This document shows, piece by piece, positions 11,968 through 43,345 of a DNA stretch of 64,000 nt; the stretch's first letter is position 1, and every line of letters starts with the position of its first letter. Source of the DNA: an uncultured Actinomycetes bacterium (GTDB taxonomy: Bacteria > Actinomycetota > UBA4738 > HRBIN12); assembly GCA_963704725.1 (NCBI GenBank), contig OY969934.1, forward strand, positions 2,336,001 to 2,400,000, given 5' to 3'. Below the pieces are notes generated by a model. That model was given only the letters and a program-made list of their open reading frames with translations. It was not told where the DNA came from and did no database searches. Both the position numbers and the translations under genes were made by a program.

Positions 11968-12957
11968 CTACGCCATCGTCAGGGCCATGAGCGCCTTGCC
12001 CGTGTGCATCCGGTTCTCGGCTTCGTCGTAGACGACCGAGTGCGGGCCGTCGATCACCGCGTCGGTGACCTCCGTGCCGCGGTCGGCGGGCAGGCAGTGC
12101 ATGTAGAGCGAGTCGCCCTTGGCCAGGTCCATCCGACGCTCGTCGCAGATCCAGTCGCGGTACCTGGCGGCGTCGGCAAGCGCCGCGGGCTCGTCCGTGA
12201 ACAGGTCGAGCCGGCCCCACGACTTGGGGTACACGACGTCGGCGCCCTCGAACGCGGCGTCCATGTCGTTCGTGAACTCGATCGACCCGCCGCCTTGCCC
12301 GGCAAGCTCTTCGGCGTTCTTGCGGACCTCCGGCATCAGGTCGAAGCCGGGAGGGTGCGCCAGGACGACGTCGATGCCGTATCGCGGCAGCAGCGTGATG
12401 AGCCCCTGGGGGACCGAGAGCGGCTTGGCGTAGCTCGGCGCGAACGCCCAGCTCACGGCCACCCGCATGCCGCGGAGGTCGTCGCCTCGCTGCTCACGCA
12501 GGGTCATGAGGTCGGCCAGCGTCTGGGTGGGGTGGTCGACGTCGCACTGCAGGTTGATCACGGGGATCTCGGCCCACCGGGCCACCTCGCGCATGTAGGC
12601 GTTGCCCTCGTACGGCTCGAGGTCGTGGCGGATGGCCAGGCCGTGACCGTACCGGGACAGGATGATCCCCATGTCCTTGGGGCTCTCGCCATGCGCGACC
12701 TGGGTCTTCTCGGCGTCCAGGAAGTGCGCGTGCGCGCCGAGCTGCGTGGCTCCGGCCTCGAACGCGTTCCTCGTGCGCGTCGACTTGTCGAGGAACAGCA
12801 TGAACAGCGTCTTGTCCGGCAGCAGCCGGTGGGACTCGCCGGCCTTGAACTTGGCCTTGAGCTCGCGCGCGAACGCGACGGCCTCGTCGATCTCCTCGGT
12901 GCTCCAGTCCCGCGTCTCGATGTAGTCCCTGCCTCGGAGCGACGAACGGTCGGTCAC
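11968..12957 (-). CDS. ygeW: YgeW-like (knotted) catabolic carbamoyltransferase
   Basis: KSTRTRN, HPTQ, SYAKPLSVPQG, VVYPKSWG, HCLPADR; KPLSVPQG and YPKSW are typical of the YgeW subfamily. Confidence 0.8.
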   Translation of the reverse strand: MTDRSSLRGRDYIETRDWSTEEIDEAVAFARELKAKFKAGESHRLLPDKTLFMLFLDKSTRTRNAFEAGATQLGAHAHFLDAEKTQVAHGESPKDMGIILSRYGHGLAIRHDLEPYEGNAYMREVARWAEIPVINLQCDVDHPTQTLADLMTLREQRGDDLRGMRVAVSWAFAPSYAKPLSVPQGLITLLPRYGIDVVLAHPPGFDLMPEVRKNAEELAGQGGGSIEFTNDMDAAFEGADVVYPKSWGRLDLFTDEPAALADAARYRDWICDERRMDLAKGDSLYMHCLPADRGTEVTDAVIDGPHSVVYDEAENRMHTGKALMALTMA

Positions 12958-13005
12958 GGTGGTCTCCCCCTCTGCTCTGGGTCGGGCTTCTCTCGGGCTT
13001 CGCGA

Positions 13006-15391
13006 TCAGCCCCCGGAAAGGGCGCTCTGGCCGAGCTCGGCACCGAAGTACTCGGGCACGGGCCGCTGGCCGGGGACCTCGGGCACCGGCGGCCACGGCG
13101 GGGCCTCGAGTCGCCGCAACCCGACGACGTCGTCCGGCTGCACGGGCGCGCGGTTCAGCTCGCGGCCGGTGGCCTCGCGGATCGCGGCGACGACGGCGGC
13201 GGTCGAGACGATCGTCGAGATCTCGCCAACCCCCTTCGCCCCGAACGGCACGTCGGGTTCGGGGTCCTCGACGACCGTGGTGACCACCGGCGGCATGTCC
13301 AGGATCGTGGGGATGAGGTAGTCGGTGAAGGACGCGTTCGCGATCCGGCCCTCCCGCAGGCGGAGCTCCTCCATCACGGCCAGCCCCAGACCCTGGGCGC
13401 TCCCGCCCTCGCTCTGCCCCTCCACCCCCTGCGGGTTGAGCGCCGCACCGACGTCGAGCGCCGACGCGAGCTGGACCGCCTTCACCAGGCCGAGCTCCTC
13501 GTCCACCTCGACGACGGCTCGCATCGCGCCGAACGCGAACATGACGTGGACGTCGCCCTGGCCGCGCTCGTCGAACCCCGTCGTCTCGCGGTGGTGGAAG
13601 GTGCGGGTGGCGACGACGGCCTCCTCGAGCAGGTCGACCAGGTCCGCGATCGGCACGCCGTCGGCCAGCACCTGCCCGTCGGCGAGCGAGAGGTTCCCCT
13701 CGGGCTGCAGCCGAGCCACGGCCCGGGCCAGGACCTCCTCGGCGACCGCGCGCGACGCGGCCTGCACGGCCCCTCCGCCCATGAACGTCTGCCGCGACGC
13801 GCTCGTCGAGCCGGCGGACTCGACCTGCGTGTCGGCCGAGTGCAGCGTGACGTCCTGCACGCCGAGCTCCTCGCGCGCGATCTGGGTGACGATCGTCGAG
13901 AACCCCTGGCCGCACTCGACGCCGGCACTGTGGACCTCGACGACGGGCCCCTGCGGCCCGGCCGAGAGCGTCACCCTGGCCTGGTGGAAGTCGTCGAATC
14001 CCTCGCTGTAGGCGATGTTCTTGTAGCCGACCGCGAAGCCGACGCCCCGTCGCAGCCCCTCGCCGTGGCCGACGTTGCCGGCGCCGCCCGGAAGGCCCAT
14101 CGGATCGCGCGCCGCCGGGGGCTCGGGATCGGGAGGCAAGGGGAGCGCCCGGCACCGCTCGATCACCTCTCGGACGGGAGCGCTGCCCCGGATCACCTGT
14201 CCGGTCGGCAGGACCGAGCCCGGGCCGACGACGTTGCGCAGACGCAGCTCGACGGGGTCGAGGCCGAGCGTCTGCGGCCAGCCGGTCCATGTTGGCCTCG
14301 TGGGCGAAGCAGACCTGCGGCGCACCGAAGCCGCGCATCGCGCCGCACGGCGGGTTGTTCGTGTAGACGGCCGTCCCCTGAAGGAGCGCGTTCGGCACCT
14401 CGTACGGCCCGGCCAGGAACGTGGTCGCGTTGCCGATCACCGCCGGCGAGGACGAGGCGAACGCGCCGCCGTCGATCACGATCCGACCGCGCACGGCGAC
14501 CAGCCGCCCGTCCCGCGTCGATCCGGTCCGCAGCCAGATCCGCGCGGGGTGCCGGTGGACGTGGGCCAGGAACGACTCCTCGCGGCCGTACGACATCTTC
14601 ACCGGCCGCCCGGTGCGCATCGCGAGGAGACAGGCGTGGATCTGCATGTGGAGGTCCTCGCGGCTCCCGAACGCGCCGCCCACCCCGGCCAGGGTGATCC
14701 GCACGCGCTCCTCGGGAAGGCCGAGCACCGGGGCGATCTGCTGCCGGTCGACGTGGAGCCACTGCGTCGAGACGATCAGGTCGATCCCGCCGTCCTCCGC
14801 CGGGATGGCCAGGCCGGCCTCCGGCCCGAGCGCGGCCTGGTCCTGCATCCCGGTTTCGTAGTAGCCCTCCACCCAGACCTCGGCGTCGGCGTCGGGGTCC
14901 CCGTGCTCGATGCGGACGTGCCGCAGCACGTTGCCCCACTCGCGGAGCTTCGGCGCGCCGGGCTCGAGCGCGCCGACCATGTCGAGCACCGGGTCCAGGA
15001 CCTCGTACTCGACGTGGATCCGGGCGGCGGCGCGTTTGGCGAGCTCGAGGGTCTCGGCAGCGACCACGGCGACCGGTTGGCCGGCGTGCAGGACCACGTC
15101 CCACGGCAGCACCGGCTGGTCCGAGAACTCGAGCCCGTACGTCTTCTTGCCCGGCACGTCCTCGTGGGTCAGGACGGCCTGGACGCCGGGGCTGGTGAGC
15201 GCCTCGGCCACGTCGATCCGCAGGATCCGGGCGTGCGGGTGTGGGCTTCGGAGCGTGGCACCCCACAGCATGCGCTCGTGCCACAGGTCGCTCCCGTACG
15301 CGAACGTTCCCTTCGCCTTGGGGACGCCGTCCACCCGGCGGACGCGTTCGCCGACCCGCCCTCGCGTGCGCTCCCCGAGCCGCGTGCTCAT
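13006..15391 (-). CDS. Xanthine dehydrogenase family molybdopterin subunit (PucD/XdhA-like); +1 indel near 14277
   Basis: LRSPHPHA, GGAFGSRED, AMRGFGAPQ, SASRQT, GAKGVGE; the protein continues across two track ORFs. Confidence 0.88.
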
Positions 15392-16743
15392 GCGCGCTCA
15401 CCCCCGATCCGAGCGCCGATCCGACGCCCCTCGCGAGCGATCTCGTCCTCGTCCGCCGTCACCAGGCGCCCGTCGCGCACGACGATGTGGCCCTCCACCA
15501 CGAGGTTCCGGACGCGCTCGCTGGCACCCATCAGGAGGCCCGCGACGGGATCGGCGTCCGTCCCCGCGTGGGCGATGCCGTCGACCCCGAACAGCGCGAC
15601 GTCGCCCCGCTTGCCCGGCTCGATCGATCCGACGTCGTCGCGGCCGAGCACCTCCGCACCGCCGCGTGTGGCGAGACGAAGCGCCTCGCGCGCCGTCAGC
15701 CCGCGCTCCGGCCCCCCGGCGCGCGACACGAGCATGGCCTGGCGGATCTCGGCGAACAGGTCGCACGGCTCGTTCGAGGCCGACCCGTCCACGCCCAGGC
15801 CGACCCGCGCCCCCTCGTCGACCAACGCGCGGACCGGAGCGATCCCGGCGCCGATCCGCAGGTTGGAGGAGGGGCAGGAGGCCACGCCCGTCCGCGTGTC
15901 GGCGATCCGCCGGACGTCCTTCTCGTTCAGGTGGATGGCGTGGGCGAACCACACGTCGGGGCCGAGCCAACCCCAGTCGTCCATCAGCTCCAGCGGGCGG
16001 CGTCCGAAGCGCTCGAGGCAGAACCGCTCCTCGTCGAGCGTCTCGGCGAGGTGCGTGTGCATCGGCACGCCGAGCCGGCGAGCGAGCTCGGCGCTCTCCC
16101 GCATCAGCCGCTCGGTCACGCTGAACGGGGAGCACGGCGCGAGCGCGACGCGGAGCATCGACCCGGGTGACGGGTCGTGGAACCGGGCCACGGCCTCCTC
16201 CGACCTCGCGAGCGCGTCGTCCGTGGACTCCACGACGGAGTCGGGCGGCAGCCCGCCGGCCGACTGGCCGAGGTCCATCGAGCCGCGGCACGGATGGAAG
16301 CGCACCCCGAGCTCACGCGCGGCGCCGATCTCCACCTCGAGGAGATCGCCCGCGCCCGCGGGGTGGATGTAGTGGTGGTCGGTGGTGGTCGTGCAGCCGG
16401 ACAGCGCCAGGAGCGCGAGCCCCACGCGCGCCGACGCCCGCTCCCACTCCGCGTCGACGCCCGCCCACACCGGGTACAGCTCGACGAGCCACCCGAACAG
16501 CCCCTGCTCTCTGGCCCGGGCCCGGGTGAGCACCTGATACAGGTGGTGGTGGGTGTTCACCAGACCGGGCAGGGCGATCTGACCACGGCCGTCGAGCCGC
16601 TCGTCGGGCTCGGCAGGCGGCGCCCCGGTCCCGACCCAGGCGACGGCCCCGTCCTCGATCAGGATCGAGCCGCCGGTCACCTCGGCGCCGTCGTCGCCCA
16701 TCGTGACGACGACGTCGCACGCCTCGATCAGGAGCCTGCTCAC
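15388..16743 (-). CDS. 8-oxoguanine deaminase-like amidohydrolase
   Basis: PGLVNTHHHLYQ, DHHY, RGSMDLGQSAGGLPP, APCSPFSV, HTHLAET, GVDGSASN. Confidence 0.85.
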   Translation of the reverse strand: MSRLLIEACDVVVTMGDDGAEVTGGSILIEDGAVAWVGTGAPPAEPDERLDGRGQIALPGLVNTHHHLYQVLTRARAREQGLFGWLVELYPVWAGVDAEWERASARVGLALLALSGCTTTTDHHYIHPAGAGDLLEVEIGAARELGVRFHPCRGSMDLGQSAGGLPPDSVVESTDDALARSEEAVARFHDPSPGSMLRVALAPCSPFSVTERLMRESAELARRLGVPMHTHLAETLDEERFCLERFGRRPLELMDDWGWLGPDVWFAHAIHLNEKDVRRIADTRTGVASCPSSNLRIGAGIAPVRALVDEGARVGLGVDGSASNEPCDLFAEIRQAMLVSRAGGPERGLTAREALRLATRGGAEVLGRDDVGSIEPGKRGDVALFGVDGIAHAGTDADPVAGLLMGASERVRNLVVEGHIVVRDGRLVTADEDEIAREGRRIGARIGGERA

Positions 16744-17213
16744 GCCAGTGCCTCCCGGCGCCGTTGCGCCGCAAGCGAAACGGCGTCGACGATCTTCTGG
16801 TAGCCCGTGCACCGGCACAGGTTCCCCGAGAGCGCCTCGCGCACGGCGAGGTCGTCGGGCGCCGGGTCGCGTTCGAGGAGGTCGGTCACCGCCACGATCA
16901 GCCCGGGCGTGCAGAACCCGCACTGCACCGCGCCGGCCTCCACGAACGCCTCCTGCACCGGATGCAAGAGGTCGCCGTCGGACAGCCCCTCGACGGTCCG
17001 GACCTCGCGCTCGTGCGCCTGGGCCGCGAGCACGAGGCACGAGCACACGAGCTCGCCGTCGAGCCACACCGAGCAGGAGCCGCACTCCCCCTGCTCGCAC
17101 GCGTTCTTCGACCCCGGGAGCCGGAGCTCGTCGCGCAGGAACGACAGCAGGCTCGAGCCCTCCCAGGCGTCGGCCTCCCGCCACTCCCCGTTGACGCGGA
17201 CCCGGATCAGCAC
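16740..17213 (-). CDS. Xanthine dehydrogenase family 2Fe-2S subunit
   Basis: KNACEQGECGSC, QCGFCTPG, GNLCRCTGY. Confidence 0.92.
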   Translation of the reverse strand: MLIRVRVNGEWREADAWEGSSLLSFLRDELRLPGSKNACEQGECGSCSVWLDGELVCSCLVLAAQAHEREVRTVEGLSDGDLLHPVQEAFVEAGAVQCGFCTPGLIVAVTDLLERDPAPDDLAVREALSGNLCRCTGYQKIVDAVSLAAQRRREALA

Positions 17214-17271
17214 GGCCCGCCCCCCTCCGTGCCGGGCCGAACGCTCGCCTGCGGGCTCCCTCCCCGGGCGC

Positions 17272-18153
17272 TCACGACACCATCGCCTCCTCGGCGCGCT
17301 CCTCCATCGCCCAGCCGAGCGCGCGACGCGCCAGCACGCGGACGCCGTGCCGACGGTAGGCGGCCGTTCCCCGAACGTCGTCGATCGGGCTCGCCGCCTC
17401 CGCCACCTGTTCCGCGAACGCCTCCGCGACGCCCGGGGCGAGCGGCGCCGCGAGGTCGTCCCACGCGCCGGCGCGCTCGAGCTCGGCGACGAGCGCGGCC
17501 TCGGCGCCGGGGGCCCGAACGACGGTCGGGGCCACCGAGCCGAGGGCGACCCGCACGCTGCGACTCGCCTGATCGAGGACGAGGCACAGCGCCGCAACCG
17601 AGATCACCATCGCGTTGCGCGTGCCGATCTTCGAGAACGACTGCGGCCCGCCGGCGGTCCGCCACCGGGCCCCGAGGATCAGCTCGTCGGCCTCGAGCGC
17701 GTTCCGCTTCACCCCGAGCAGGAAGCCGTCCCACGGCAGCCACCGCTCGCCCCGCGCCGCCGAGACGAGCCCGATCTCCGCGTCGTGGGCCGCGAGCACG
17801 GGGAGCGCGTCGCCCGCCGGCGACGCCGTCCCGAGGTTGCCGCCCACGGTCCCCCGGTTCCGGATCTGGGGCGAGCCGACGGAGCGCGACGCCTCGGCCA
17901 GGGCGCGGAGCTGCGGCAGCTCCCGCTGGATCCGCGCATAGGTGACGCCGGCCCCGAGGACGACCAGCCCGTCGTCGATCCGCCACGTACGGAGCTCGGG
18001 CAGGCGAGACACGTCCAGGATGGCCTCGGGCCTGGCCAGGTCGAAGTTGATCTCCACCATGAGGTCGGTCCCGCCGGCGATCGGCACGGCCTCGGGATGG
18101 GCGGCGCGCAGCTCGAGCGCCTCCGCGAGCGTGGTCGGCAGGTAGGCCTCCAC
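17272..18153 (-). CDS. Xanthine dehydrogenase family FAD subunit
   Basis: AGGTDLMV, QIRNRGTVGGN, SPAGD, PIDDVRGTAAYR. Confidence 0.92.
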   Translation of the reverse strand: MEAYLPTTLAEALELRAAHPEAVPIAGGTDLMVEINFDLARPEAILDVSRLPELRTWRIDDGLVVLGAGVTYARIQRELPQLRALAEASRSVGSPQIRNRGTVGGNLGTASPAGDALPVLAAHDAEIGLVSAARGERWLPWDGFLLGVKRNALEADELILGARWRTAGGPQSFSKIGTRNAMVISVAALCLVLDQASRSVRVALGSVAPTVVRAPGAEAALVAELERAGAWDDLAAPLAPGVAEAFAEQVAEAASPIDDVRGTAAYRRHGVRVLARRALGWAMEERAEEAMVS

Positions 18154-18156
18154 GGC

Positions 18157-19166
18157 TCAGAACTCCCCGCCCGCGAACGCGTCGATCATGGCCTCCACGT
18201 CGTCACCGAGCGGATACAGGACGGGGCACGTGCACCCGGCCTCGACGTACTCGCGCACCTTGGCCCGGCACTCGTCCGCCGTTCCCGAGGCCGTGATCAT
18301 CTGCACGACGTCGTCGGGAACCAGCCTCATGGCGCGGCGGATCTCCTCGGGGCCGGCCGGCCAGGTGAGGACCTTGCCGATCTCCTCCAGCAGCGACGGC
18401 TCGACGCCGCTCGCCTTCCCGATGTGCGGCTGCTGCCCCAGGTACTGCGTGACGAGCTCGCGCGCCCGGTCCAGGGCCAGGTCGCGATCCTCGTCGAGCG
18501 AGCAGACCACGAGCTGCGGACGGTCGATGTCCTCGACGCGCACGCCGCGCTTGGCGCGCCCGCCGCGAGCCGCTCCATCGCGGTCGCGTTGTACGCCGGG
18601 CTCACCAGGTAGTTGAGCAGCGCGCCGTCGGCGATCTCGCCGGCGAGCTCCATCATCTGCATGCCCGTCGCGCCGAGGTAGATCGGCACCGCTCTCGGCG
18701 AGCGGTCGCCGTGGACGATGTCGATCTGGATGTCCTCGACGTCGACGAACTCGCCGTGGAACGTCACGTTCTCCATCGCGATCAGCCGGCGGACGACTTC
18801 GACGTACTCGCGCATCGCGAGCAGCGGCCGCTCCCGCCTCACGCCGACCTTCGTGGCGAGCGGCTCCCACCACGCGCCGATCCCGAGCATGATCCGCCCG
18901 GGCGCCAGGTCGTCGAGCGTGACGAACGTCGCCGCCATGAGCCCGGCGTTCCGCGTCCAGTTGTTCACGACCCCGGATCCCACCTTGATGCGCTCGGTCG
19001 TCGCAGCGAACGCGGCCATCGGCACCGTGGCCTCGCGCACGAGGCGGCTCTCGGCCTGCCACACGGCCTCGAACCCCTGGGCCTCGGCGTGTCGCACGTA
19101 CCGGATGCCGTCGGCGAGCGGGTGCTTGTCCTGCAGGTAGATCGCCACGCGCCCCTCGGAGCTCAC
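18157..19166 (-). CDS. LLM-class, Mer-like oxidoreductase (probably F420-dependent); indel near 18558
   Basis: [48 protein letters not shown]; C-terminus ASGTADEC...[10 protein letters not shown] lies in the adjacent frame. Confidence 0.82.
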
Positions 19167-19173
19167 CGCCACC

Positions 19174-20517
19174 TCACGCACCCCCCGCCGGCTCGAACGG
19201 GTGGGCCGGGATCGCGTCCATGCGGTTCCACAGGTCCTGGGCCGCCGCCTGCGCCAGGGCCCGGGGTTCGCCCTCGTCCTGGGTCGCCAGTCGCCGGTCC
19301 CTGACGACGACGGAGCCATCAACCACGACGTCGCGGACGTTGGACGCGGACAGCCCGAACACCCAGTGCCCGGCGAGGTTCTCCGCGCTGAGCGGTGTGG
19401 GGGGGTCGTAGTCGAGCACGACGAGATCGGCGGGCGCTCCGGGCTCGATCCGGCCCAGGAGCGGCTCCCCGAACGCGCGCCCGGCGAACGCGGCCCCGGC
19501 GGCGAGACGGCCGAGCACCCACGACGGCGAGATCGAGGGGTCGTCCTCGTGGCCGCGCCAGTAGGCGGCGCGTGACTCGGCGAACATGTCCCCGTCGATC
19601 CCGTCCGTTCCGAGCGCCACCCGCTCGCCGAGCGCGCCGACGGGGGCCCGCCCGACGCGGTTGTTCATGTTCGACCGCGGGTTGTGAACCACCCAGGCGC
19701 CGGCGTCGCGGATCAGGCCGATCTCGCGGTCGTCGACGTGCACGCAGTGCGCGAGGAGCGATCGCTCGGTGAGTGCGCCCGCATCGGCCAGGCGCTCGAC
19801 CACGCGACGCCCGAACCGGGCCTCGGCGTCGCGCTCGTCGGCGGCATCCTCGGCCACGTGGACGTGGATCCCGACCAGGAACTCGTCCGCAAGCGAAACG
19901 CAAGCAGCGAGCGTCTCCGCGGACAGGGTGAAGGAGGCGTGCGCCCCGACCATCGTCCGCAGCGTCGATGAGGCATCGTCGGCCCGGTCCTCCTTGAGAC
20001 GGCGAAGGGTCTCCTCGAGCCCGGCGGCCGCGGCGTCGAGGCCGTCGCGGTCGGTGACCTCGTAGCACAGGATCCGGCGGGCGCCGAGGCTGCTCAGGCC
20101 CTGGTCGAGCCACTCGAGCGACGCCGCGATGGCGGTCGGCGAAGCGTGGTGGTCGACGATCGTCGTCGTCCCCGAGAGCAGGGCATCGGCGCCGCCCGTC
20201 ATGGCCGACCGAAGGATCGATGTCGGGTCGAGTGCCCGGTCGAGCCGCCACCACACGCGCTGGAGGATCTGCACGAAGCTCTCCGGCGGCTCGAGGCGGT
20301 AAGGCATCCCTCGAGCCAGCGCCGAGTAGAGGTGGTGGTGCGCACACACGTTGCCCGGGATCACCAGGCAACCCGTGCAGTCGATCACGTCGGCCGATGG
20401 CTCCGCGGTCGCGCCCTCCGCCGCGATCCGGCCGTCGACCACCAGGACGTCGATCGGCCGGAGCGCCGGCGGATCGAGCGACGTGACCACCGTCCCGCCC
20501 GACAGGAGCAGGGTCAC
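19174..20517 (-). CDS. SsnA-like amidohydrolase
   Basis: [61 protein letters not shown] match the SsnA subfamily. Confidence 0.82.
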
Positions 20518-23127
20518 TCGGCCTCCGCGCGCCGGGCGGCCGCCCCGGCGAGCCGCGGGGCGAGCGCGGCACCCGCCGCCGAGTCGCGCATCGGGAGCTT
20601 CGTCCGCCACGTGCCCTCGAACGCGTGGAGCGCGCCGGCGCAGGCGGCCGCCGTCGGCACGAGTCCGATCTCGCCGACGCCCTTGGCCCCGAACGGCCCC
20701 TCGGGCTGCGGCACCTCGACCAGGATCGTCTCGACGTCCGGCATCCGAGGCGCCGGCACGATGCCGAGCGACTTCAGGGTGGTCGTCGTGGGGAACCCGC
20801 CCTCGACGGCGTACTCCTCGGTCAGGCCGAACCCCAGGCCCATGTGCACGGCGCCCTCGATCTGGCCCTCGAGCAGCGTGGGGTTCATGGCCCTGCCGAC
20901 GTCGTGCGCGGCGACGACCTTCTCCACGTGGCCCTCGTCGTCCAGGATCACGACCTGCACGGCCCAGCCGAAGGCGAAGTGCGTGACGGGGTTCGGGGCG
21001 TCCGATCCCGGCTTGTCCGTCCAGTCCACGACGATCTCGCCGTAGAACTCGCGGCCCGCGAGATCCTCGAGCCGGCTGCCGATCAGCTCCGCCTTGAGCT
21101 TCTTCGCCGCCTCCTGGATGGCGCGGCCGCCGAGGACCGTCGAGCGCGACGCCGTGGTCTGCCCGGTGTCGAGCTCGCGCATCGTGTCGACGATCACGTG
21201 GACCCGATCCGCCGTGATGCCGAGCTCCTCACAGACCACCTGCAGCAGGACGGTGTTCACGCCCTGGCCCATCTCGGTCCACGAGTGGAACAGCGTGACC
21301 GTGCCGTCGGCCTCGGGCCGCAGGATCGCCCGGCCGAACTCCGTCAGCCCGTTGCCGATCCCGGTGTTCTTCACGCCGGAGCCGATCCCCGCGTACCGGG
21401 CTCCCCGGTAGGCGTCGCGGACGGCCTCCAGGCACGCCTTGATCCCGACGCCCTCGCCCAGCACCTGCCCCGTGCCGAAGCGGTCGCCGACCTCGAGCGC
21501 GTTGCGCCACCGGATCTCCCAGGGGTCGAGGCCCACGAGCTCGGCCAGGCGGTCGAGCATCCCGTCGATCGCGAACATCACCTGGTTCACGCCGAAGCCG
21601 CGGAACGCGCCGCACGGCGGGTTGTTCGTGTAGACGGCCCGGGCCTCGACGTCGACCGCGTCGAACGCGGTACGGCCCGCACGCGTGCCCGGCCGCCCGC
21701 TCGAGCACCTTGTCGCCGACGCTCGCGTACGCGCCGGTGTCGCCGACGATCCGCGCCCGGACCCCGGTCAGCCTGCCGTCGGCCTCGCACCCGACCGTGT
21801 ACGTCATCGTGAGCGGGTGGCGCTTGGGGTGGAAGCGGAGGCTCTCGGCCCGCGTCAGCGTCAGCAGGACCGGCCGCCCCGTCGCCACCGCGGCGAGCGC
21901 GGTGTGGCACTGCACGTTCAGGTCCTCCTTCGCGCCGAACGCGCCGCCGTTGGAGACCTGGGTGACGCGGACGCGCTCCTCCGGCCATCCGAGGAACGAG
22001 GCGATCTGCCGACGGTCCTCCCACACGCCCTGCCCCTGGGACGAGACGTGGACCGTCCCGTCCGCCTCCGGCACCGCGAACGCGGACTCGGGCTCGAGGA
22101 AGGCGTGCTCGATGAACTGGGTCTGGAACGTCTCGGTCAGCACATGCGCCGATCCCTCGAGGGCGGCGTCGACGTCGCCACGCTTCACGATCGAGGTCGA
22201 GAGCAGGTTGCCGCTCTCGTGCAGCGCCGGGGCCTCCGGGGCCAGCGCGTCGAACGGGTCGGTGAGCGGCTCGAGCACCTCGTACTCGACGGCGACGAGC
22301 TCGGCAGCGTCGCGGGCGGCGCGCCGGGTCTCCGCGACGACGATCGCGAGCACGTCGCCGACGTAGCGCGTGATCTCGCCCTCGGCGACGACCTGGGGCC
22401 AGTCTCGCGTGATCAGGCCCTGGGCGCGCTCCCCCGTGACGTCGTCGGCGAGGAGCACGGCCACGACCCCCTCGTGCGCCAGCGCCGGCGCGGGATCGAT
22501 CCGCACCAGGCGCGCCCGGGGGTGGTCGCTGAACCGGAGCGCCCCGTGGAGCATCCCGGGCGCCGTGAGGTCGTTGATGTACGGCTTGTCCCCGAGCGCC
22601 AGCTCCCGGCCCTGGTACCGCGCCGTCCGCGAGCCGACCCGCCCCGACATCTCGGGCTCCGGCATGGGCTCGCCGGCGCGCGAGCGGGCCACGAGGTCGA
22701 CGGCATCGACGATCTTGAGGTAGCCGGTGCACCGGCACAGGTTGCCGGCGAGGGCCTTGGCGATCTCCTCGCGGGAGGGCGCGGGGTTCTTGGCCAGCAG
22801 GCCCTCGCCCTTCATCACGATGCCCGGCGAGCAGAACCCGCACTGCGACGCGCCGGAGACGACGAACCCGTCCGCCCACCGCTCGCGCTCCTGCGGCTCG
22901 AGGCCCTCCTGCGTGACGATGTGACGCCCCGCCACCCGGTCGGCCTTCTGCGCGCACGAGACCACGGCCTTGCCGTCGACCAGCACCGTGCAGGCCCCGC
23001 ACGAGCCCTCCGGGGCGCACCCGTCCTTCACCGAGGTCACGCCGAGCTCCTCGCGGAGGAGCTCGAGCAGGCTCATGCCCGGGCGAACCTCGGCCGAGAC
23101 CGGTCGTCCGTTCAGCGTGAGGTCCAC
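20514..23127 (-). CDS. Fused 2Fe-2S + molybdopterin hydroxylase (selenium-dependent XDH/XdhD-like architecture); indel near 21665
   Basis: N-terminal KDGCAPEGSCGAC, QCGFCSPG, CRCTGY, then HAFLEPE, GGAFGAKED, AFRGFGVNQ, TTASR, GAKGVGE. Confidence 0.85.
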
Positions 23128-23182
23128 GAGGGCCTCGCCTCCTTCTCGCCGCATCGAACTGCTCGCATCATGAGGCCGCCCG

Positions 23183-24139: not shown

Positions 24140-24157
24140 CGCCGGTCCCGAACCCCC

Positions 24158-25111: not shown

Positions 25112-25130
25112 CGATGTCCTCCTCGTTCGT

Positions 25131-26473
<1,343 letters not shown>

Positions 26474-26477
<4 letters not shown>

Positions 26478-27967
26478 GCCACCTCGATGCCCGAACGGGC
26501 GTTGAACGCCCGGATCGCCTCGTCCCACGCCGGCATCAGGTCGCGCAGGCCGCGCCAGAACCCCTGGTCGCGCCGGGCCGTGAAGTCCTCGATCGACACG
26601 CCCTGCTGCTCGACCCACGTGAAGTACCCGAGGTTGAAGACCCGGTCTCGGTCCTCGTCCGTGAGCTGGGCCATGTCGCCCGTGCCCTGCCCCTCGAGAG
26701 AGCGGCCGAACGTCTCGGCGGCCTCGGCCTCCCCGAACCCGCCGGGGAAGTCGCGCGCCAGGACCTTGTCGACCTCCGTGCGGTACATCGAGGCGCCGTC
26801 CGTCGCGATCGTCACGATGACGTCGTCGGCTCCCAGATGCTGCAGCCTCGCCGTCTTGATCGCGCCGAGGACGTTGCAGATGCTCGAGAGCCCGAAGGAG
26901 TCCAGGGCGGAGATCGTCGCCTCGTCGACGCCGCGCCGGCGGAGGTAGGCCCGGCCCTCCGCGGTGTTGAACAGGACGTTCAGCCGGTCGGTGTCCCGGT
27001 CGCTGAGGTCCACCACGACGTCGGTGTTCATGACGTTGTGGATCAATGGAACGTGCTTGTCGCCGATCCCCTGGATGTTGTGCTCGCCGAACCCGTTGCG
27101 GAGCAACGTGGGACACTCGAGCGCCTCGGCCGCGACGATGGACGTTCCGTACCGGTCTTTCAGGTGGTCGCCGGCCGCGATCGTGCCTGCGGAGCCGGTG
27201 GCGGAGACGAACGCGCGCAGGCGCAGTCCCGGGTCGCGCTCGCGCAGCGTCTCGAACACGTGGGCCAGCGCCCGGCCCGTGACCAGCTCGTGCACGAGGT
27301 GGTTGGGGTACTCCGAGAACTGGTTCAGGATCACGTTCCCCGGATCCACGGCCAGGCGCTTGCACTCGTCGTAGATCTCGCGGACGTTGCTCTCCACGCC
27401 CGGCGTCCGGATGACGTCGGCGGCGTCGAGGACCCACCGCTCCAGCCACTCGAACCGCTCGCGGCTCATGCCCTCCGGTAGGACCGCCACGCCCCGGCAC
27501 CCCATGATGCGGCTGATGGCCACGCCGCCCCGGCAGTAGTTGCCGGTCGAGGGCCACACGGCCCGGTGCGCGGTCGCGTCGAACTCGCCGCCGACGACCC
27601 GGGGCACCAGGCAGGCGTAGGCCGCCAGGACCTTGTGCGCGCCGATCATGGGGAAGCGGTCGCCGAGCACGACCACGATCTTCGCGTCGACGCCGGTGAG
27701 CGACGACGGCAGGACCACGTGCGCGGGGACCTCGACGATCCCTCGCCGGTCCGCGGCGTTGTACCAGTGGACGCGGAACAGGTTCAGCGGGTGGGCGGAG
27801 TCGGGGTCGATGCCCGCGAGCTCGTCGCGGATCCGCTGGGGGATCTTGGCGGGCTCCGCCAGCTGCTCGAACGTGGGCAGCGCGATCCCCGCCTCACGGA
27901 ACCGGTCGACCGTCCGCTCCTGGATCCGCGGATCGGCGACGTCGTGCTCGAGGCCCGATCCCGTCAT
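26474..27967 (-). CDS. Fold-type II (TrpB/CysK superfamily) PLP-dependent enzyme, about 497 aa
   Basis: [37 protein letters not shown]. Confidence 0.82.
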
Positions 27968-28067
27968 CTCGACCACCTCCCACCCCTCGACCGGCCGCTC
28001 CACGAATCGGGCCCGGGCGAACCCTCCGGGCGGCTCGAGGGTCGCGGCTCCCGGCCGAGGCCCAACC

Positions 28068-28095
28068 CCGGTGAATATTAGAGTTTGTTGAAGCG
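28068..28095 (-). promoter_or_regulatory. AT-rich promoter/operator for the leftward catabolic operon
   Basis: Minus strand reads GCTTCAACAAACTCTAATATTCAC, with a TAATAT -10-like hexamer; AT island in the divergent intergenic gap. Confidence 0.5.
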
Positions 28096-28174
28096 GGCGC
28101 CGCAGGGGATGCCCGTCGGCCCGTGGCGTGAGGGGCCCTTCGGCCCTGCTCGCCGACGGCGAGATTGACAGACC

Positions 28175-28444
28175 GTGGACACCGTGAGCGCACCGGCGGA
28201 TCGGCGCAGGGTCAGGGCCGAGTTCACCGTCTTCCCCTTCCGTGAGAGCGAGGCCCTGCCGGCCCACGCCCGGGCCGCCGTGGAGGCGGCTCGATCGGCC
28301 GGTGCGGAGGTGGACGTCGAGCCGCTGTCCAGCGTCGCCTCGGGTGAGGTCGAGGTCGTCCTCGAGGCCGTGCGCGCGGCGGCCATCGCCGCGTTCGGGG
28401 CGGGAGCGACGCGGTTCACCCTCAACGTCGAGGTGGAGCCGTGA
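28175..28444 (+). CDS. Thiamine_BP/YkoF-like small ligand-binding protein
   Basis: RAEFTVFPF...[13 protein letters not shown]...[13 protein letters not shown] ferredoxin-like pattern; coupled to the next gene by GTGA. Confidence 0.7.
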
Positions 28445-28926
28445 CCGCGGAGACCGAGTTCGCGCAGGCGCTGGCGGGGGCGCTCGGGCCCCTGTACCGC
28501 GTGTCCGTCGTCGGCTCGAACGGGGACGTCGAGGCGACGTTCCGGGCCCCGGACCAGGCCGAGGCCGGGGTCCCCTCGAGCCGGATCGGGCTCCCGGGCT
28601 CCTCCTCGTGCCTGGTGGTCGAGGTCGACGTCGGCGCGCTCCAGGCCGCCGACCGCGTCCTGCACGAGCTCGCCCGGGCCAGATGGGAGACCTCGATCGG
28701 CCTGCCCAACCTGGACGGTGCCCTCGAGGAGCTGATCTCCGACGCCGAGTCCAGGATCGGACGGCCGGTCGCCGAGATGAGCCGGATCGACAAGCAGCGG
28801 CTGGTCAAGTTCCTGGACGAGCGCGGGGCGTTCTCCCTCCGCAAGTCGGTCGAGGGGGTCGCCCTCGTGCTCGGGGTGAGCCGATTCACGGTCTACAACT
28901 ACCTCGACGCCTCGCGAGGCTCTTGA
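28441..28926 (+). CDS. Transcriptional regulator with a YheO-like HTH_22 C-terminus
   Basis: [38 protein letters not shown]. Confidence 0.85.
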
Positions 28927-29170
28927 CGGCGCCCCCGGCGTGCGCGGAGACGGCCCGCTCCCGGGCCCCACGACCCCATCGCAGCGGGCCGTTTGCCTCA
29001 GCGCCCGTCTCCGCCCCGCCCGGCATGCTTGCCGACGGCGTTCAACATTCCGACAGGTCGGGAGCGATCACCGTGCGGAACCCCCAGCCGATCCCCCGTC
29101 GATCCGCGTCCACGGTTCGTGCGGCGGCGGGGTCGCCCTGCGGCCACCCCCGGACGCGGCGGCCGGTCGC

Positions 29171-30353
29171 GTGACGATCGCCGCCCGTGGGGACCTGCGC
29201 CGGTTCCTGGTGAGCTGGTTCGCGCTGCCGGGGGCCGCGCTCGCCGCCCTGCTGGTCGGCGCGGCGATGCTCCTCGCGCTCGGCGCGAACCCTCTGACCG
29301 GATACCGCGCGCTGGCCGAGGGAGCCTTCGGCAGCTTCGATGCGCTCGCCGACACGGCGATCAAGGCGGTGCCGCTGGTGCTCGTCGGCGTGGGCATCTG
29401 CATCGCGTTCCGCGCCAACGTCCTGAACATCGGCGGCGAGGGTCAGATGGTCATGGGCGGCCTGGCGGCCACGGCGACGGCGATCGCCGTCCCCGGCGTG
29501 CCCGCGCCCCCTCATGGTGCCGCTCGTGCTGCTCGCCGGCGCCGCCGGCGGGGCCGTGTGGGGGGCGATCCCCGGGTCGCTGAAGGCCTACCTCAACGTC
29601 AACGAGATCCTGTCCACGATCATGCTCAACATCGTTGCGGTGCAGGTCATGAACTATCTGCTCGCCGGACCCATGGTCGACAAGGAGTTCTCCGGCTTCT
29701 CCCTGATCCCGCAGACCAAACGGCTCGCGCCGAGCGCGGACCTGCCGGTGCTCCCCGGCGGAACGAAGCTCCACGCGGGGGTCGTCGTGGCGGTGCTCGC
29801 CGCGGTGCTCGTGTACGTCCTGCTGTGGCGAACGGGGCTCGGGTTCCGGCTACGCGCGGTGGGGCTGTCGCGAGAGGCGTCCGCGTACGCGGGCATCCCC
29901 GTGAAGCGGACCATCACGCTGGCGATGACGCTGGCCGGGGCCATGTCCGGCCTGGCCGGCGCCGTGGTGGTCTTCGGCGGGGCCTCGCACCGGATGGTCA
30001 CGGACGGCACCGCGACGGGGTTCACCGGATCCGCGGGCTTCAACGGGATCGTCGCCGCCCTGTTCGGGGGGCTGCATCCCGTGTGGACGATCCTGTCCGC
30101 GTTCGTCTTCGGCGGCCTGCTCGTCGGTGGCAACGCCATGCAGATCGCCGTCCAGGTCCCGACGGCGCTGGTCGTGGCGCTGAACGGCGTGCTCGTGGTC
30201 TTCGTCGTCTCGATCGAGTACCTGCGCCGCCGGGCCCGACTGCGGCTCGAGGTGCCCGCCGGCGCGCTGGCCGAGAGCCGTCCCCGGCTCGAGCCCGCCG
30301 CCGCGGGGGCCGCCGCGGCGGCGGAGGATCCCCCCGGGGAGGCCGGCGGATGA
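29171..30353 (+). CDS. Nucleoside/purine ABC transporter permease 1; indel in the C-run near 29510
   Basis: NIGGEGQ, then NEILSTIMLN, GFRLRAVG, GFNGIVAALFG in the shifted frame. Confidence 0.85.
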
Positions 30354-31282
30354 GGGACTTCTTCACCCTCACCGTGCTCACGGCCACCGTCGCCGCCGGG
30401 GTCCGGCTGGCCACCCCGTTCCTGCTGGCCAGCCTTGGCGAGACCATCGGACAGCGCAGCGGGGTCCTCAACCTGGGCGTCGACGGGATCATGCTGCTCG
30501 GCGCCTTCGGCTCGTACTACACGGCCCTGCACTCGCACAGCCTGTGGCTCGCGGTGCTGGTCGGCGCGCTCGTCGGGGCGACGATGGGCCTCGTCACGGC
30601 CTTCGTCAGCGTGACGCTGAAGGCCGAGCAGGGCATCAGCGGCATCGGCGTCTTCCTGTTCGGCCTGGGGCTGTCCGACCTGCTGTTCCAGAAGCTCGTG
30701 GGCACGCCCGTGCCGATCCCGACGTTCCCCACGGTCAAGGTCCCGCTCCTCGCGAGCATCCCCACCGTCGGCGAGATGCTGTTCCAGGCCAACCTGATGG
30801 TCTACCTGGCCTTCCTGCTGGTCCCCGTCCTCGCGTTCGTCCTCAACCGAACGACGTACGGCACCAACGTGAAGGCGGTGGGCGAGAACCCGGCCGCCGC
30901 CGACAGCGTCGGCGTGAACGTCGCGCGGGTGCGGTACTCCACGGTCCTGCTGGGCAGCACGCTCGCCGGCGTGGCCGGCGCGGCCCTCGCGCTCCAGCTC
31001 GGCATCTTCCAGCAGAACCTCACCCAGGGGCAGGGGTTCATCGCGGTCGCGCTGGTCTACTTCGGCGCGTGGCGTCCCGTGGGCGTGATGGCCGGCTCGC
31101 TCCTCTACGGGATGGTCGCGGCCACGGTCCTGACGTGGAAGACGCTCGGGATCATCCCGCAGAGCGCCTCGGACCTGGCGGCGATGGCTCCGGCGGTGCT
31201 CACCGTCCTCGCCCTCGTCGTCGTCGCCCGGCGCTTCCGGCAGCCGGCCGCCCTGGCCAGGCCCTACGAACGAGGAGGCTGA
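30350..31282 (+). CDS. Nucleoside/purine ABC transporter permease 2
   Basis: QRSGVLNLGVDG, AVGENPAAADSVG, GQGFIAVALV. Confidence 0.9.
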   Translation: MRDFFTLTVLTATVAAGVRLATPFLLASLGETIGQRSGVLNLGVDGIMLLGAFGSYYTALHSHSLWLAVLVGALVGATMGLVTAFVSVTLKAEQGISGIGVFLFGLGLSDLLFQKLVGTPVPIPTFPTVKVPLLASIPTVGEMLFQANLMVYLAFLLVPVLAFVLNRTTYGTNVKAVGENPAAADSVGVNVARVRYSTVLLGSTLAGVAGAALALQLGIFQQNLTQGQGFIAVALVYFGAWRPVGVMAGSLLYGMVAATVLTWKTLGIIPQSASDLAAMAPAVLTVLALVVVARRFRQPAALARPYERGG

Positions 31283-31343
31283 GGACGCTCGAGGGACGGA
31301 TCCCCGCATCACCGAAGGCACGGATCCCGAAGGAGGGGTTGGC

Positions 31344-32423
31344 ATGGACACGAAGCTGCTTCGATGGGCCCGCCTCGCGGCCATCGTCGCGGTCCTGGCG
31401 ATCGTCGCCGCGGCCTGCAGCGACGACGGCACCACGAACGGGCCGACGAACACCGGCACCACCGGCACGACGGCGACGACGACCGGGACCACCGGCACCA
31501 CCGGCGCCACCGGCACCACGGCCGCCGAGCCGTTCCGCGTGGCGGTCGTCGCACCGAGCGCCACGAACGACCTGGCGTTCACGCAGTCGATGGTCGACGC
31601 GCTGAACACCCTGAAGGACTCCGAGAACCTCGACATCGCGGTCTCGGACAACCTGTTCGTCGTGGACGACGCGGCGAGCGCGCTCCAGAACTACGCCGAG
31701 CAGGGCTACGACCTGGTCATCGCGCACGGGTCGCAGTTCGGCGGCATCATCGAGCAGCTCGCGCCGGAGTTCCCCGACGTCTCGTTCGCCTGGGGCACGG
31801 CGGGCGACACCTTCGGCCAGCCCAACGTGTACGCCTACCAGGCCGCGTCGGACCAGGGCGGCTACGTCCAGGGCGTGCTCGCGGCGGGGCTGACGCAGAC
31901 CAAGAAGATCGGCGTGGTCGGCCCCATCGAGGTCGGCGACGCGAAGCTGTACGTCGACGGGTTCGTCGCCGGCGTCGCGGCCGCCGATCCCTCGGTCAAG
32001 GTGAACGTGAACTACACGGGATCGTTCAGCGACGTCGCGCTCGCGACGGAGGCGGCCCGGAGCTTCGTGGCGGCCGACGCCGACGTCCTGACCGGCTCGG
32101 CCCAGATGGTCGTCGGAGCGGTCGGGGTCGCGTCGGAGCGAGACGTGCCGTGGTTCGGGACGCAGGCCAACCAGACCTCGCTCGCCCCGAACATCGTCGT
32201 GTCTTCCCAGGTCTACCACTGGGAGGTCGCCCTGCAGCAGATCATCGACGGCATCCGCGGTGGGACGCTGGGCGGCCAGAGCTACACGATCGATCTCGCC
32301 AACGGCGGCGAGGTCATCGAGTTCAACCCGGATTACAGCGTTCCCGCCGACGTGCAGGCGGCCGGTGAGGACGCGATCGCCGGGCTCTCGGACGGCTCGA
32401 TCACGACCGGCGTCTCCGAGTAG
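31344..32423 (+). CDS. BMP family ABC substrate-binding lipoprotein
   Basis: Lipobox AAAC; Thr/Gly linker; DLAFTQS, GYDLVIAHG, YTGSFSD. Confidence 0.9.
   Translation: MDTKLLRWARLAAIVAVLAIVAAACSDDGTTNGPTNTGTTGTTATTTGTTGTTGATGTTAAEPFRVAVVAPSATNDLAFTQSMVDALNTLKDSENLDIAVSDNLFVVDDAASALQNYAEQGYDLVIAHGSQFGGIIEQLAPEFPDVSFAWGTAGDTFGQPNVYAYQAASDQGGYVQGVLAAGLTQTKKIGVVGPIEVGDAKLYVDGFVAGVAAADPSVKVNVNYTGSFSDVALATEAARSFVAADADVLTGSAQMVVGAVGVASERDVPWFGTQANQTSLAPNIVVSSQVYHWEVALQQIIDGIRGGTLGGQSYTIDLANGGEVIEFNPDYSVPADVQAAGEDAIAGLSDGSITTGVSE
31447..31522 (+). repeat. Imperfect 9-bp repeats (ACCGGCACC) encoding a Thr-Gly-Thr linker
   Basis: TNTGTTGTTATTTGTTGTTGATGTT in the BMP N-terminus. Confidence 0.8.
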
Positions 32424-32448
32424 CTCGAAGGGGCGAGGGGGAGGGACG

Positions 32449-34041
32449 GTGGAGGCGACCGCTCCGGGAACGGCCTCGGTGGAGGCCGCGCCGATGCTGG
32501 AGATGCGCGGCATCACGAAGCGCTTCCCCGGAGTGGTCGCCAACCACCGGATCGACTTCGACGTGCGCGTCGGCGAGGTGCACACGCTCCTCGGCGAGAA
32601 CGGGGCGGGCAAGAGCACGCTGATGCGCGTCCTCTACGGCCTGTACCGGGCGGACGAGGGCGAGATCCGCCTGGGCGGCGAGCGGGTCACCATCGCCTCT
32701 CCCGCCGACGCGATCCGCAACGGCATCGGGATGATCCACCAGCACTTCATGCTCGTGCCCTCGCTCACCGTGGGCCAGAACGTCGCGCTGGGGCTGCGCT
32801 CCTCGCGCGGCTTCCTCACGGACCCGGACCGCGTCGCCCGGACGGATCCGGGAGCTCTCGCAGGCCTACGGGCTCAAGGTCGACCCCGACGCGTACGTGT
32901 GGCAGCTCTCCGTGGGCGAGCGCCAGCGCGTCGAGATCATGAAGGCGCTCTACCGCAACGCCACGCTGCTCGTGCTCGACGAGCCGACGGCGGTGCTCAC
33001 CCCACAGGAGGTGGACGACTTCTTCGTCATCCTGCGGCAGATGGTCCGCGACGGGCGTGGCCTCGTCTTCATCTCGCACAAGATCCGCGAGGTGCTCGCG
33101 CTCTCGGATCGCATCACCGTCCTGCGCGACGGTCGCACCGTCGGCACGGTCCTGCCCGCCGACGTGTCGCGGCGGGATCTCGCCAACATGATGGTGGGCC
33201 GCGAGATCGACACCGCCGAGCGGCCCACCGAGGCCTCGGCGGCCGAGGTTCGGCTGGTCGTGCGCGGGCTCCACGTTCGCGGCGACCGCGGGAACGAGGC
33301 GGTGCGGGGCGTCGACCTGGAGGTTCGCTCGGGCGAGGTCGTGGGGATCGCCGGCGTGTCCGGGAACGGGCAGCGCGAGCTGGCCGAGTCGATCGCCGGC
33401 CTCCGGCCGTCGACCGCGGGCTCGATCCTGCTCGACGGCGCCTCCCTGGACGGACGGGGGCCCGCGGAGGTGCGGGAGGCCGGGCTGGGCCACGTCCCCG
33501 AGGAGCGGATGCGCGACGGGGTGATCGGCGACTTCAGCGTGGCCGACAACCTGCTGCTCGTGGACAGTCGCTCCACCGACTACACGCGAATCTGGGGTTC
33601 CTGCGCAACCGCGCCATCCGCGGCCACTGCGAGCAGCTCGTCGCCGACTTCAACATCAAGGCGCCGAGCCTGGACACGCCGGCCCGAAACCTGTCGGGCG
33701 GCAACATCCAGAAGCTGATCCTGGCCCGAGAGCTCTCCGGGCGGCCCCGCGCCCTCCTGGTCGCGCAGCCCACGCGCGGCGTCGACGTCGGCGCCGCCGA
33801 GTACATCCACCGCCGCCTGATGGAGCAGCGCGCCGCCGGCACCGCCATCTTGATCATCTCGGAGGACCTGGACGAGATCCTGTCGCTCTCGGACCGGATC
33901 CTCGTCGTGTACGAGGGGTCGATCATCGGGGAGGTGGATCCCCGGACGACGGCCCGGGAGACCCTGGGGCTGATGATGGCCGGCGTCCGGGCCGACGCGG
34001 CGGACGATCGGGCCGGGGCCCCCTCCTCGCGCGAGGACTAG
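32449..34041 (+). CDS. Nucleoside/sugar ABC ATPase with two NBDs; compensating indels near 32838 and 33590
   Basis: GENGAGKST, LSVGERQRVEI, LDEPT, LSGGNIQK, QPTRGVDVGA. Confidence 0.88.
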   Translation: MEATAPGTASVEAAPMLEMRGITKRFPGVVANHRIDFDVRVGEVHTLLGENGAGKSTLMRVLYGLYRADEGEIRLGGERVTIASPADAIRNGIGMIHQHFMLVPSLTVGQNVALGLRSSRGFLTDPDRVARTDPGALAGLRAQGRPRRVRVAALRGRAPARRDHEGALPQRHAARARRADGGAHPTGGGRLLRHPAADGPRRAWPRLHLAQDPRGARALGSHHRPARRSHRRHGPARRRVAAGSRQHDGGPRDRHRRAAHRGLGGRGSAGRARAPRSRRPRERGGAGRRPGGSLGRGRGDRRRVRERAARAGRVDRRPPAVDRGLDPARRRLPGRTGARGGAGGRAGPRPRGADARRGDRRLQRGRQPAARGQSLHRLHANLGFLRNRAIRGHCEQLVADFNIKAPSLDTPARNLSGGNIQKLILARELSGRPRALLVAQPTRGVDVGAAEYIHRRLMEQRAAGTAILIISEDLDEILSLSDRILVVYEGSIIGEVDPRTTARETLGLMMAGVRADAADDRAGAPSSRED

Positions 34042-43269: not shown

Positions 43270-43345
43270 GGTCCCATCGTCTAGTGGCCTAGGACACCAC
43301 CCTCTCAAGGTGGAGACACGGGTTCGAACCCCGTTGGGACTACCA
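43270..43345 (+). tRNA. tRNA-Glu(CTC), probable integration site
   Basis: GGTCCCATCGTCTAGTGGCCTAGGACACCACCCT-CTC-AAGGTGGAGACACGGGTTCGAACCCCGTTGGGACTACCA. Confidence 0.96.

Follow-up and report, generated by a model that had tools for sequence, protein, structure and literature searches.

The reductive pathway of urate degradation was not elucidated until 2025, and then solely in gut anaerobes. In Escherichia coli it is encoded by a cluster comprising xdhD-ygfM, ygfK, ssnA, hyuA, ygeW, yqeA, ygeY and ygeX (Li et al. 2025, PMC12507026), and the 2,8-dioxopurine (alias yanthine) pathway of Clostridium sporogenes and C. difficile employs XdhAC as DOPDH and either YgfK or UacX as DOPOR (Liu et al. 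2025, bioRxiv, 10.1101/2025.04.24.650524). The accessible parts of these two papers, together with the preprint of the former, supply the canonical steps on which our proposal is modelled. Within those parts, Liu et al. describe a YqeB/YqeC selenium-cofactor trait in all gut strains that carry the cluster, and Li et al. describe a putative F420 luciferase-family (PF00296) reductase that replaces YgfK or UacX beside SsnA in Chloroflexota. Here we analyse a block of 12 genes that may encode a variant of this pathway, located in a 64,000-nucleotide stretch of the genome of an uncultured Actinomycetes bacterium (genome positions 2336001-2400000, hereafter the window, from whose first letter all positions are counted unless marked as genome positions).

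The genome is a single contig of 3.45 Mb, 95% complete and approximately 72% G+C. At this composition plain lists of open reading frames (ORFs) are useless, and genes were therefore called by codon bias; they were assigned by Pfam and NCBIfam profile scans, scored against curated family cut-offs. Both procedures bear out the gene content and order given in an earlier reading of this DNA, referred to below as the original prediction: 12 tightly packed minus-strand genes, transcribed from 28003 to 11968 (Table 1). In order of transcription they encode two fold-type II pyridoxal phosphate (PLP) enzymes (PALP1 and PALP2), a carbamoyltransferase derived from aspartate carbamoyltransferase (ATCase) and termed here CTase_A, a carbamate kinase, a fused 2Fe-2S/Mo hydroxylase (SeXDH) without a flavin adenine dinucleotide (FAD) domain, an SsnA-like amidohydrolase, a Mer-like luciferase-like enzyme (LLM), the FAD and 2Fe-2S subunits of a xanthine dehydrogenase (XDH), an 8-oxoguanine deaminase family amidohydrolase, a PucD-type XDH Mo subunit and a compact YgeW-type carbamoyltransferase (CTase_B). 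With the start codons that we chose, the spacers between coordinates range from a 4-bp overlap, as found between the PALP1 stop and the PALP2 start, up to 58 bp. We put the probability that this block represents a soil-bacterial variant of the reductive urate pathway at roughly two in three, judging from homology and genomic context.

Like the E. coli cluster, the block includes an SsnA-like amidohydrolase, a YgeW-type transferase, carbamate kinase and a fused FeS/Mo hydroxylase, and by analogy the two routes would follow a common logic of dehydroxylation, reduction, ring opening, removal of two ureido groups and formation of pyruvate. Unlike that cluster, it carries LLM, an ATCase-derived second transferase and two unrelated PLP enzymes in place of YgfK, YgeY and YgeX; its TIGR03311-type hydroxylase has no YgfM partner, and YqeB and YqeC were not found. 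The clostridial pathway, so far as its published description available to us goes and by that description rather than by sequence comparison, likewise features an FAD-less fused hydroxylase and obtains ATP through a carbamoyltransferase and carbamate kinase. It differs from the present block in its reductase, which here would be LLM, and in that two transferases could yield two ATP.

Comparison with related loci supports assigning the block to the reductive (2,8-dioxopurine) kind of purine/urate cluster, as the original prediction had proposed. A scan of GTDB species genomes gave 444 encoding stretches, from which the best 80 loci, all in metagenome-assembled genomes (MAGs), were taken, annotated by tblastn with best-hit assignment and counted for their features; 73 of these have at least 1.1 kb downstream, 60 have at least 4 kb upstream and 38 have full flanks. 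The 80 loci are labelled Actinomycetota (including Thermoleophilia and Gaiellales), Chloroflexota, Armatimonadota, Dormibacterales and others. The same block was also seen in 10 fetched neighbourhoods from relatives, among which its conservation reaches the order level, and SsnA orthologues of at least 60% identity occur in 17 of 40 relatives (a tally that includes one unpublished genome, G011). Conservation of the cluster as a unit, which the original prediction had named as a check, thus holds both in order-level relatives and across the 80 loci. Among the full-flank loci CTase_B is present in 37, PALP1 in 34 and PALP2 in 32, and an adenine deaminase accompanies 14, indicating a purine context.

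Most of the canonical enzymes that are missing from the block are also missing from the rest of the genome. In profile searches of the whole genome the best scores were 152.9 bits for YgfK (TIGR03315; cut-off 835.3), 134.9 bits for YgeY (TIGR03526; cut-off 321.5) and 40.9 bits for YgeX/DpaL (TIGR03528; cut-off 532), and no uricase, 5-hydroxyisourate (HIU) hydrolase or 2-oxo-4-hydroxy-4-carboxy-5-ureidoimidazoline (OHCU) decarboxylase exceeded the curated cut-offs. The original prediction had seen no YgfK, YgeY, clear YgeX, uricase, HIU hydrolase or allantoinase within the window, which is borne out, and had suggested looking for canonical copies elsewhere; for the first five that search was negative and the absences hold genome-wide, no search having been aimed at allantoinase alone.

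Which enzymes, then, occupy the corresponding positions? The original prediction had LLM standing in for YgfK, and sister clusters bear this out, in that LLM holds the slot which UacX-like enzymes or YgfK fill in them. Indeed, LLM lies directly after SsnA in 66 of the 73 loci with sufficient downstream sequence. Four of the seven exceptions, all Chloroflexota, carry in this slot a PyrD/PreA-like gene of the family to which UacX, the C. difficile reductase, belongs, and in a fifth the slot is taken by a true YgfK, which scores 874 bits (cut-off 835); of the last two, L055 has an empty slot and the other a fragment of YgfK at a different place in the cluster. It is quite unlikely, in our estimate, that LLM belongs to a purine cluster without being its dioxopurine reductase, acting instead on a later intermediate or in F420 redox balance while another enzyme reduces the ring. 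Such a role would fit the empty slot of L055 and the fact that LLM passes no named NCBIfam subfamily cut-off, yet it sits poorly with the adjacency of LLM and SsnA, with the occupation of the LLM position by UacX-like enzymes or YgfK in five of the seven loci without LLM, and with a genome that has no detectable YgfK. Loci from Chloroflexia and Limnocylindrales (L120:11353-14649; L116, L119, L123 and L124), whose cluster is otherwise the same, have a true YgfK or a PyrD/PreA-like gene after SsnA, which adds nuance to the published remark on LLM in Chloroflexota.

The LLM slotted in this way is probably F420-dependent, as its relatives suggest. All 14 best NCBIfam matches of its N-terminal piece are F420-class families, and Bac_luciferase is matched by both pieces into which its gene is broken (see below). 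For an intact relative all six NCBIfam matches are of the F420 class, the best being Mer (NF002619); at 180.2 bits against a cut-off of 276, however, LLM is not a Mer, and its context is purine catabolism. Similarly, its ten best PDB matches are all F420 enzymes, again with Mer at the top (E 3e-38), and enzymes dependent on flavin mononucleotide (FMN) rank below them at E 1e-8 or weaker. The genome also encodes F420 biosynthesis proteins, including FbiC, whose CofH part scores 515 bits (cut-off 374), and a CofC whose gene and the cluster end are 1.4 kb apart (Table 1).

A second replacement concerns YgeY. CTase_A passes the ATCase model only marginally (Table 1), and we rejected the possibility that it is the housekeeping pyrB, as a separate pyrB scoring 309.8 bits is located elsewhere in the genome, as is an argF. 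The carbamoyl-phosphate motifs STRTR and HPTQ are retained in CTase_A. Where the genome's pyrB has LRVQRER, which we take to be the position that binds the aspartate side chain (the second substrate), CTase_A has EPVVQAD; all seven aligned orthologues share this EPVVQ[A/P]D motif and, with CTase_A, a three-residue insertion in the loop before it. CTase_A, which carbamate kinase often accompanies, and YgeY are mutually exclusive: among the 60 loci whose upstream sequence extends to 4 kb or more, CTase_A was found in 49, YgeY in eight, both in none and neither in three. In two congeners (G004 and G005) a true YgeY (approximately 480 bits against a cut-off of 321) occupies the exact position of CTase_A and carbamate kinase. 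All four YgeY-type genomes that were checked (G004, G005, G019 and G030) keep one carbamate kinase elsewhere, and a CTase_A-type congener, G010, has two. In a quick SsnA tree, obtained by a short search with support from the Shimodaira-Hasegawa-like approximate likelihood ratio test (SH-aLRT) only, the CTase_A/YgeY label changes at least five times on well-supported branches, and one locus with CTase_A and carbamate kinase pairs with a YgeY locus whose SsnA sequence is almost identical. The YgeY type is scattered over the tree, implying that the swap happened repeatedly. The original prediction's replacement of YgeY by a second transferase is thus upheld to the extent that a PyrB-like transferase and YgeY alternate at a single site of the cluster, which suggests that CTase_A may be a phosphorolytic stand-in for the hydrolase.

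From these homologies and the canonical steps we infer the substrates, the use of F420 and the PLP enzyme roles as follows. The PucD-type XDH, with its FAD and 2Fe-2S subunits, and the 8-oxoguanine deaminase would act as feeders that convert purines to urate. The FAD-less TIGR03311-type hydroxylase would strip the 6-oxo group from urate to give 2,8-dioxopurine, which the Mer-like LLM would reduce with F420H2 in the role of YgfK or UacX; the SsnA-like amidohydrolase would open the ring, and the hydantoin would probably be opened by a HyuA-family dihydropyrimidinase encoded 38 kb away. Both ureido groups of 2,3-diureidopropionate would be lost by phosphorolysis, one via CTase_B and the other via CTase_A in place of the hydrolase YgeY, and carbamate kinase would convert both carbamoyl phosphates to ATP, giving up to two ATP per urate. 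Finally, PALP1 and/or PALP2 would convert diaminopropionate to pyruvate and ammonia. The feeder enzymes have recognizable relatives: PucD passes its model when intact (Table 1), the 2Fe-2S subunit gives XdhC/PucE-type NCBIfam matches and the FAD subunit XdhB-type matches, all of the latter under their cut-offs. The 8-oxoguanine deaminase, which we had considered as a HyuA substitute, was rejected in that capacity, given that it passes its own equivalog cut-off and accompanies the XDH genes of relatives, not SsnA.

Several points weigh against the reductive urate reading, and they are considered together in this and the following three paragraphs. CTase_B falls below the YgeW cut-off, as SsnA does below both models that recognize it (Table 1), and SeXDH has only 27.5% identity to E. 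coli XdhD. Moreover, Li et al. (PMC12507026) and Liu et al. (10.1101/2025.04.24.650524), in their accessible text, differ on which ureido group YgeW removes, and we therefore do not assign individual ureido groups to CTase_A or CTase_B. Alternatively, the module of SsnA, LLM, hydroxylase and transferases might degrade another N-heterocycle, such as a pyrimidine, a pterin or a nicotinate-type compound, and only adjoin a purine XDH. The substrate assignments all rest on homology, and the hydroxylase is no nearer to XdhD than to XdhA (30%). We nevertheless regard a different substrate as very improbable. The intact hydroxylase exceeds the TIGR03311 equivalog cut-off, purine deaminases co-cluster with the module, and SsnA, YgeW-type transferase and carbamate kinase, along with the true YgeY, YgfK and HyuA-family members of sister clusters, occur together just as in the solved urate clusters. 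SsnA aligns over its full length with E. coli SsnA (35% identity), the carbamate kinase is 47% identical to E. coli YqeA, and CTase_B is 38% identical to E. coli YgeW, which is also its best PDB match (3q98). At 329 residues against 396 in YgeW, CTase_B shares the YgeW substrate-side motifs and is missing three YgeW insertions.

The PLP enzymes constitute a further weak point of the urate pathway proposed here, as neither resembles YgeX beyond the common fold and a single lyase would be enough. PALP1 exceeds no NCBIfam cut-off and is distantly CysK/CBS-like, its best PDB match being a cysteine synthase (E 2e-15). For PALP2 the best NCBIfam match is threonine synthase (77.5 bits against a cut-off of 303), the best PDB match has an E value of 3e-8, and identity to E. 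coli YgeX is 23% (E 1e-4). Both are thus remote from every solved structure, and look-ups in the ESM Atlas gave no clue to their function, returning nothing more specific than 'PLP-dependent enzyme' clusters. Across 26 orthologues of each protein, one Lys and a Gly-rich loop do not vary. A threonine-synthase-like PLP enzyme, 29% identical to PALP2, is positioned between hydroxylase and SsnA in four loci of the YgeY type. None of these has PALP2 and three lack PALP1, the other (L054) having a distant PALP1 match on the opposite strand. PALP1 and PALP2 may, as the original prediction suggested, take the place of YgeX, a role that we assign to them only provisionally.

Equally, there is no hydantoinase in the cluster. 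The original prediction had seen no HyuA, which is correct for the window, but a HyuA-family dihydropyrimidinase (TIGR02033, 601 bits), the only HyuA-family gene of the genome, lies 1.7 kb past the window end, at genome positions 2401734-2403080. It shares 44% identity with E. coli HyuA and is separated from the cluster by 38 kb, with unrelated genes in between. Its neighbours include an aldehyde dehydrogenase and an F420-type LLM other than that of the cluster, and so it may serve another pathway. The cluster LLM is only 26% identical to this second LLM. Across relatives, a hydantoinase is present in 15 of 17 that have SsnA and in 6 of 23 that do not, a comparison in which the relatives are not independent and several genomes are incomplete, and a TIGR02033 hydantoinase lies in the cluster (within 10 kb) in 9 of the 38 full-flank loci. 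The group at genome positions 2400140-2404593, which combines the TIGR03842 F420-type LLM (448 bits against 295), a DUF3291 protein, the dihydropyrimidinase (599 bits for TIGR02033 in this stretch) and the aldehyde dehydrogenase, may in its own right form a reductive module, linked to F420, for pyrimidines or hydantoins. The selenium trait is likewise incomplete: the clostridial enzymes, as far as the available description goes, need SelD and YqeBC selenium, and here SelD is present (376 bits) and YqeB is not found in the genome, YqeB and YqeC each reaching the cut-off in 0 of 21 genomes.

Finally, compared with intact relatives, the SeXDH, LLM and PucD genes each differ by an indel of one base, and none is a single ORF here. 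The breaks, +1 near 21675 in SeXDH, -1 near 18565 in LLM and +1 near 14272 in PucD, change the frame without a stop. Three broken genes in the region of the genome where breaks are densest mean that the pathway may be inactive in this strain: genome positions 2350000-2380000 (14000-44000 of the window) contain, by a crude codon-bias measure, seven flagged breaks, more than any other 30-kb window, most of which have 0-2. One could accordingly propose that the pathway is the same by origin and is decaying or dead in this strain, the indels, including those in the importer ATPase gene, being real mutations, and the three one-base indels are indeed confirmed against the intact relatives. We consider decay unlikely, and think that consensus errors are the likelier cause. 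Downstream of the breaks the codon bias persists and identity to relatives stays at 78-90%, neither nonsense codons nor deletions are seen, and unrelated neighbouring genes are broken as well. Genome-wide, 134 of 2589 coding segments (approximately 5%) end in an apparent frame break by the same crude codon-bias measure, which yields some false flags. Similar breaks also occur in other genes of related MAG loci, as expected of consensus errors in long-read assemblies.

Table 1. Genes of the cluster and other features of the window, with the profile matches that identify them (scores in bits).
Feature	Position	Strand	Profile evidence
PALP1, 509-aa fold-type II PLP enzyme	26474-28003	-	Pfam PALP, 43.7
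PALP2, 448-aa fold-type II PLP enzyme	25131-26477	-	Pfam PALP, 145.7
CTase_A, ATCase-derived carbamoyltransferase (PyrB-like)	24158-25111	-	TIGR00670 (aspartate carbamoyltransferase), 242 (cut-off 236.95)
Carbamate kinase	23183-24139	-	TIGR00746, 360.3 (cut-off 358.25); NF009007, 376.7
SeXDH, fused 2Fe-2S/Mo hydroxylase without FAD domain	20514-23139	-	Pfam; TIGR03311, 574 + 407 on its pieces (intact congener relative 982; cut-off 830)
SsnA-like amidohydrolase	19174-20517	-	NF005540, 419.5 (cut-off 444); TIGR03314, 396.9 (cut-off 455.5)
LLM, Mer-like luciferase-like enzyme	18157-19172	-	Pfam Bac_luciferase (PF00296)
XDH FAD subunit	17272-18153	-	FAD_binding_5 + CO_deh_flav_C
XDH 2Fe-2S subunit	16740-17213	-	Fer2, Fer2_2
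8-oxoguanine deaminase family amidohydrolase (oxoGD)	15388-16743	-	NF006055, 619.4 (cut-off 532)
PucD-type XDH Mo subunit	13006-15391	-	TIGR03196, 470.8 + 360.4 on its pieces (intact relative 867.6; cut-off 783.65)
CTase_B, compact YgeW-type carbamoyltransferase	11968-12957	-	NF005538 (YgeW), 247 (cut-off 453)
CofC	9904-10548	+	TIGR03552, 165 (cut-off 105)
Small Thiamine_BP-domain protein	28175-28444	+	Pfam PF01910, 29.9
HTH_22-domain protein, candidate local regulator	28441-28926	+	Pfam PF13309, 76
BMP-type ABC importer	~29514-34041	+	Pfam BPD_transp_2 x2, Bmp, ABC_tran
Importer, two permeases	~29514-31282	+
Importer, BMP protein	31344-32423	+
Importer, ATPase	~32430-34041	+
Histidine kinase	34659-36250	+	PAS/GAF/HisKA_3
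Two tandem Phosphoesterase-family genes	36204-39037	-	PF04185
Beta-propeller protein with RTX calcium-binding repeats	40739-41960	+	PD40
Large serine recombinase	43305-44816	-	Resolvase, Recombinase, Zn_ribbon_recom

On the opposite strand, the original prediction had the block facing a pair of regulators and a basic membrane protein (BMP)-type ATP-binding cassette (ABC) importer. One of the pair is indeed an HTH_22-domain protein and a candidate local regulator; the other is a small Thiamine_BP-domain protein and not a regulator. The importer is real by its Pfam domains, but BMP lies within 10 kb in only 2 of the 38 full-flank related loci, and the HTH_22 protein is near 2 as well. Neither is thus supported as a conserved part of the system, and the importer's association with the cluster is peculiar to this genome. 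Among the genes further out, the histidine kinase is apparently split by a frame change near 35200 and the PD40 beta-propeller protein has a frame change near 41385. The tandem Phosphoesterase-family genes have a homologue upstream of PALP1 in the congener locus L037, and a large serine recombinase is encoded approximately 15 kb from the cluster.

The original prediction also called the variant undescribed, which overstates the case: replacement by an F420 luciferase-family enzyme in Chloroflexota was already reported by Li et al. 2025 (PMC12507026). In its accessible text their neighbourhood analysis advances the same LLM replacement idea and names only Chloroflexota. Proteins with PF00185 are all counted there as YgeW, and those with PF00291 as YgeX, so that the two transferases and the PLP pair are not separated. 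Literature searches for F420 with SsnA returned only Li et al. 2025, and those for dioxopurine with carbamate kinase only Li et al. and Liu et al. 2025. The window would thus be a further, well-supported example of a variant already known, to which the present analysis contributes evidence on the swaps, graded by strength, together with the finding that YqeB and YqeC are absent and a caveat about frame breaks.

This cluster and its approximately 80 relatives suggest that the rebuilt pathway is common in uncultured soil phyla without uricase genes. Going beyond the single locus, we tentatively propose, as a bolder generalization that we hold to be somewhat less probable than its converse, that soil members of the Actinomycetota, Armatimonadota and Chloroflexota without uricase mineralise urate through a reductive route driven by F420H2. 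This route would do without the iron-sulfur flavoenzyme YgfK and without the YqeBC selenium cofactor system, for which reason it might be oxygen-tolerant, and it would conserve two ATP per urate by double phosphorolysis. Three unstudied families would carry it: an LLM that reduces dioxopurine, a carbamoyltransferase of ATCase descent that acts on ureido amino acids, and a pair of PLP enzymes. The natural swaps, of LLM with UacX-like enzymes or YgfK and of CTase_A plus carbamate kinase with YgeY, show which proteins to pair with which substrates in assays. If the rebuilt pathway is indeed common in such phyla, it would give coenzyme F420 a further physiological role, provide a case in which a carbamoyltransferase evolved from ATCase supplants a hydrolase and thereby gains ATP, and assign functions to two orphan families of PLP enzymes.

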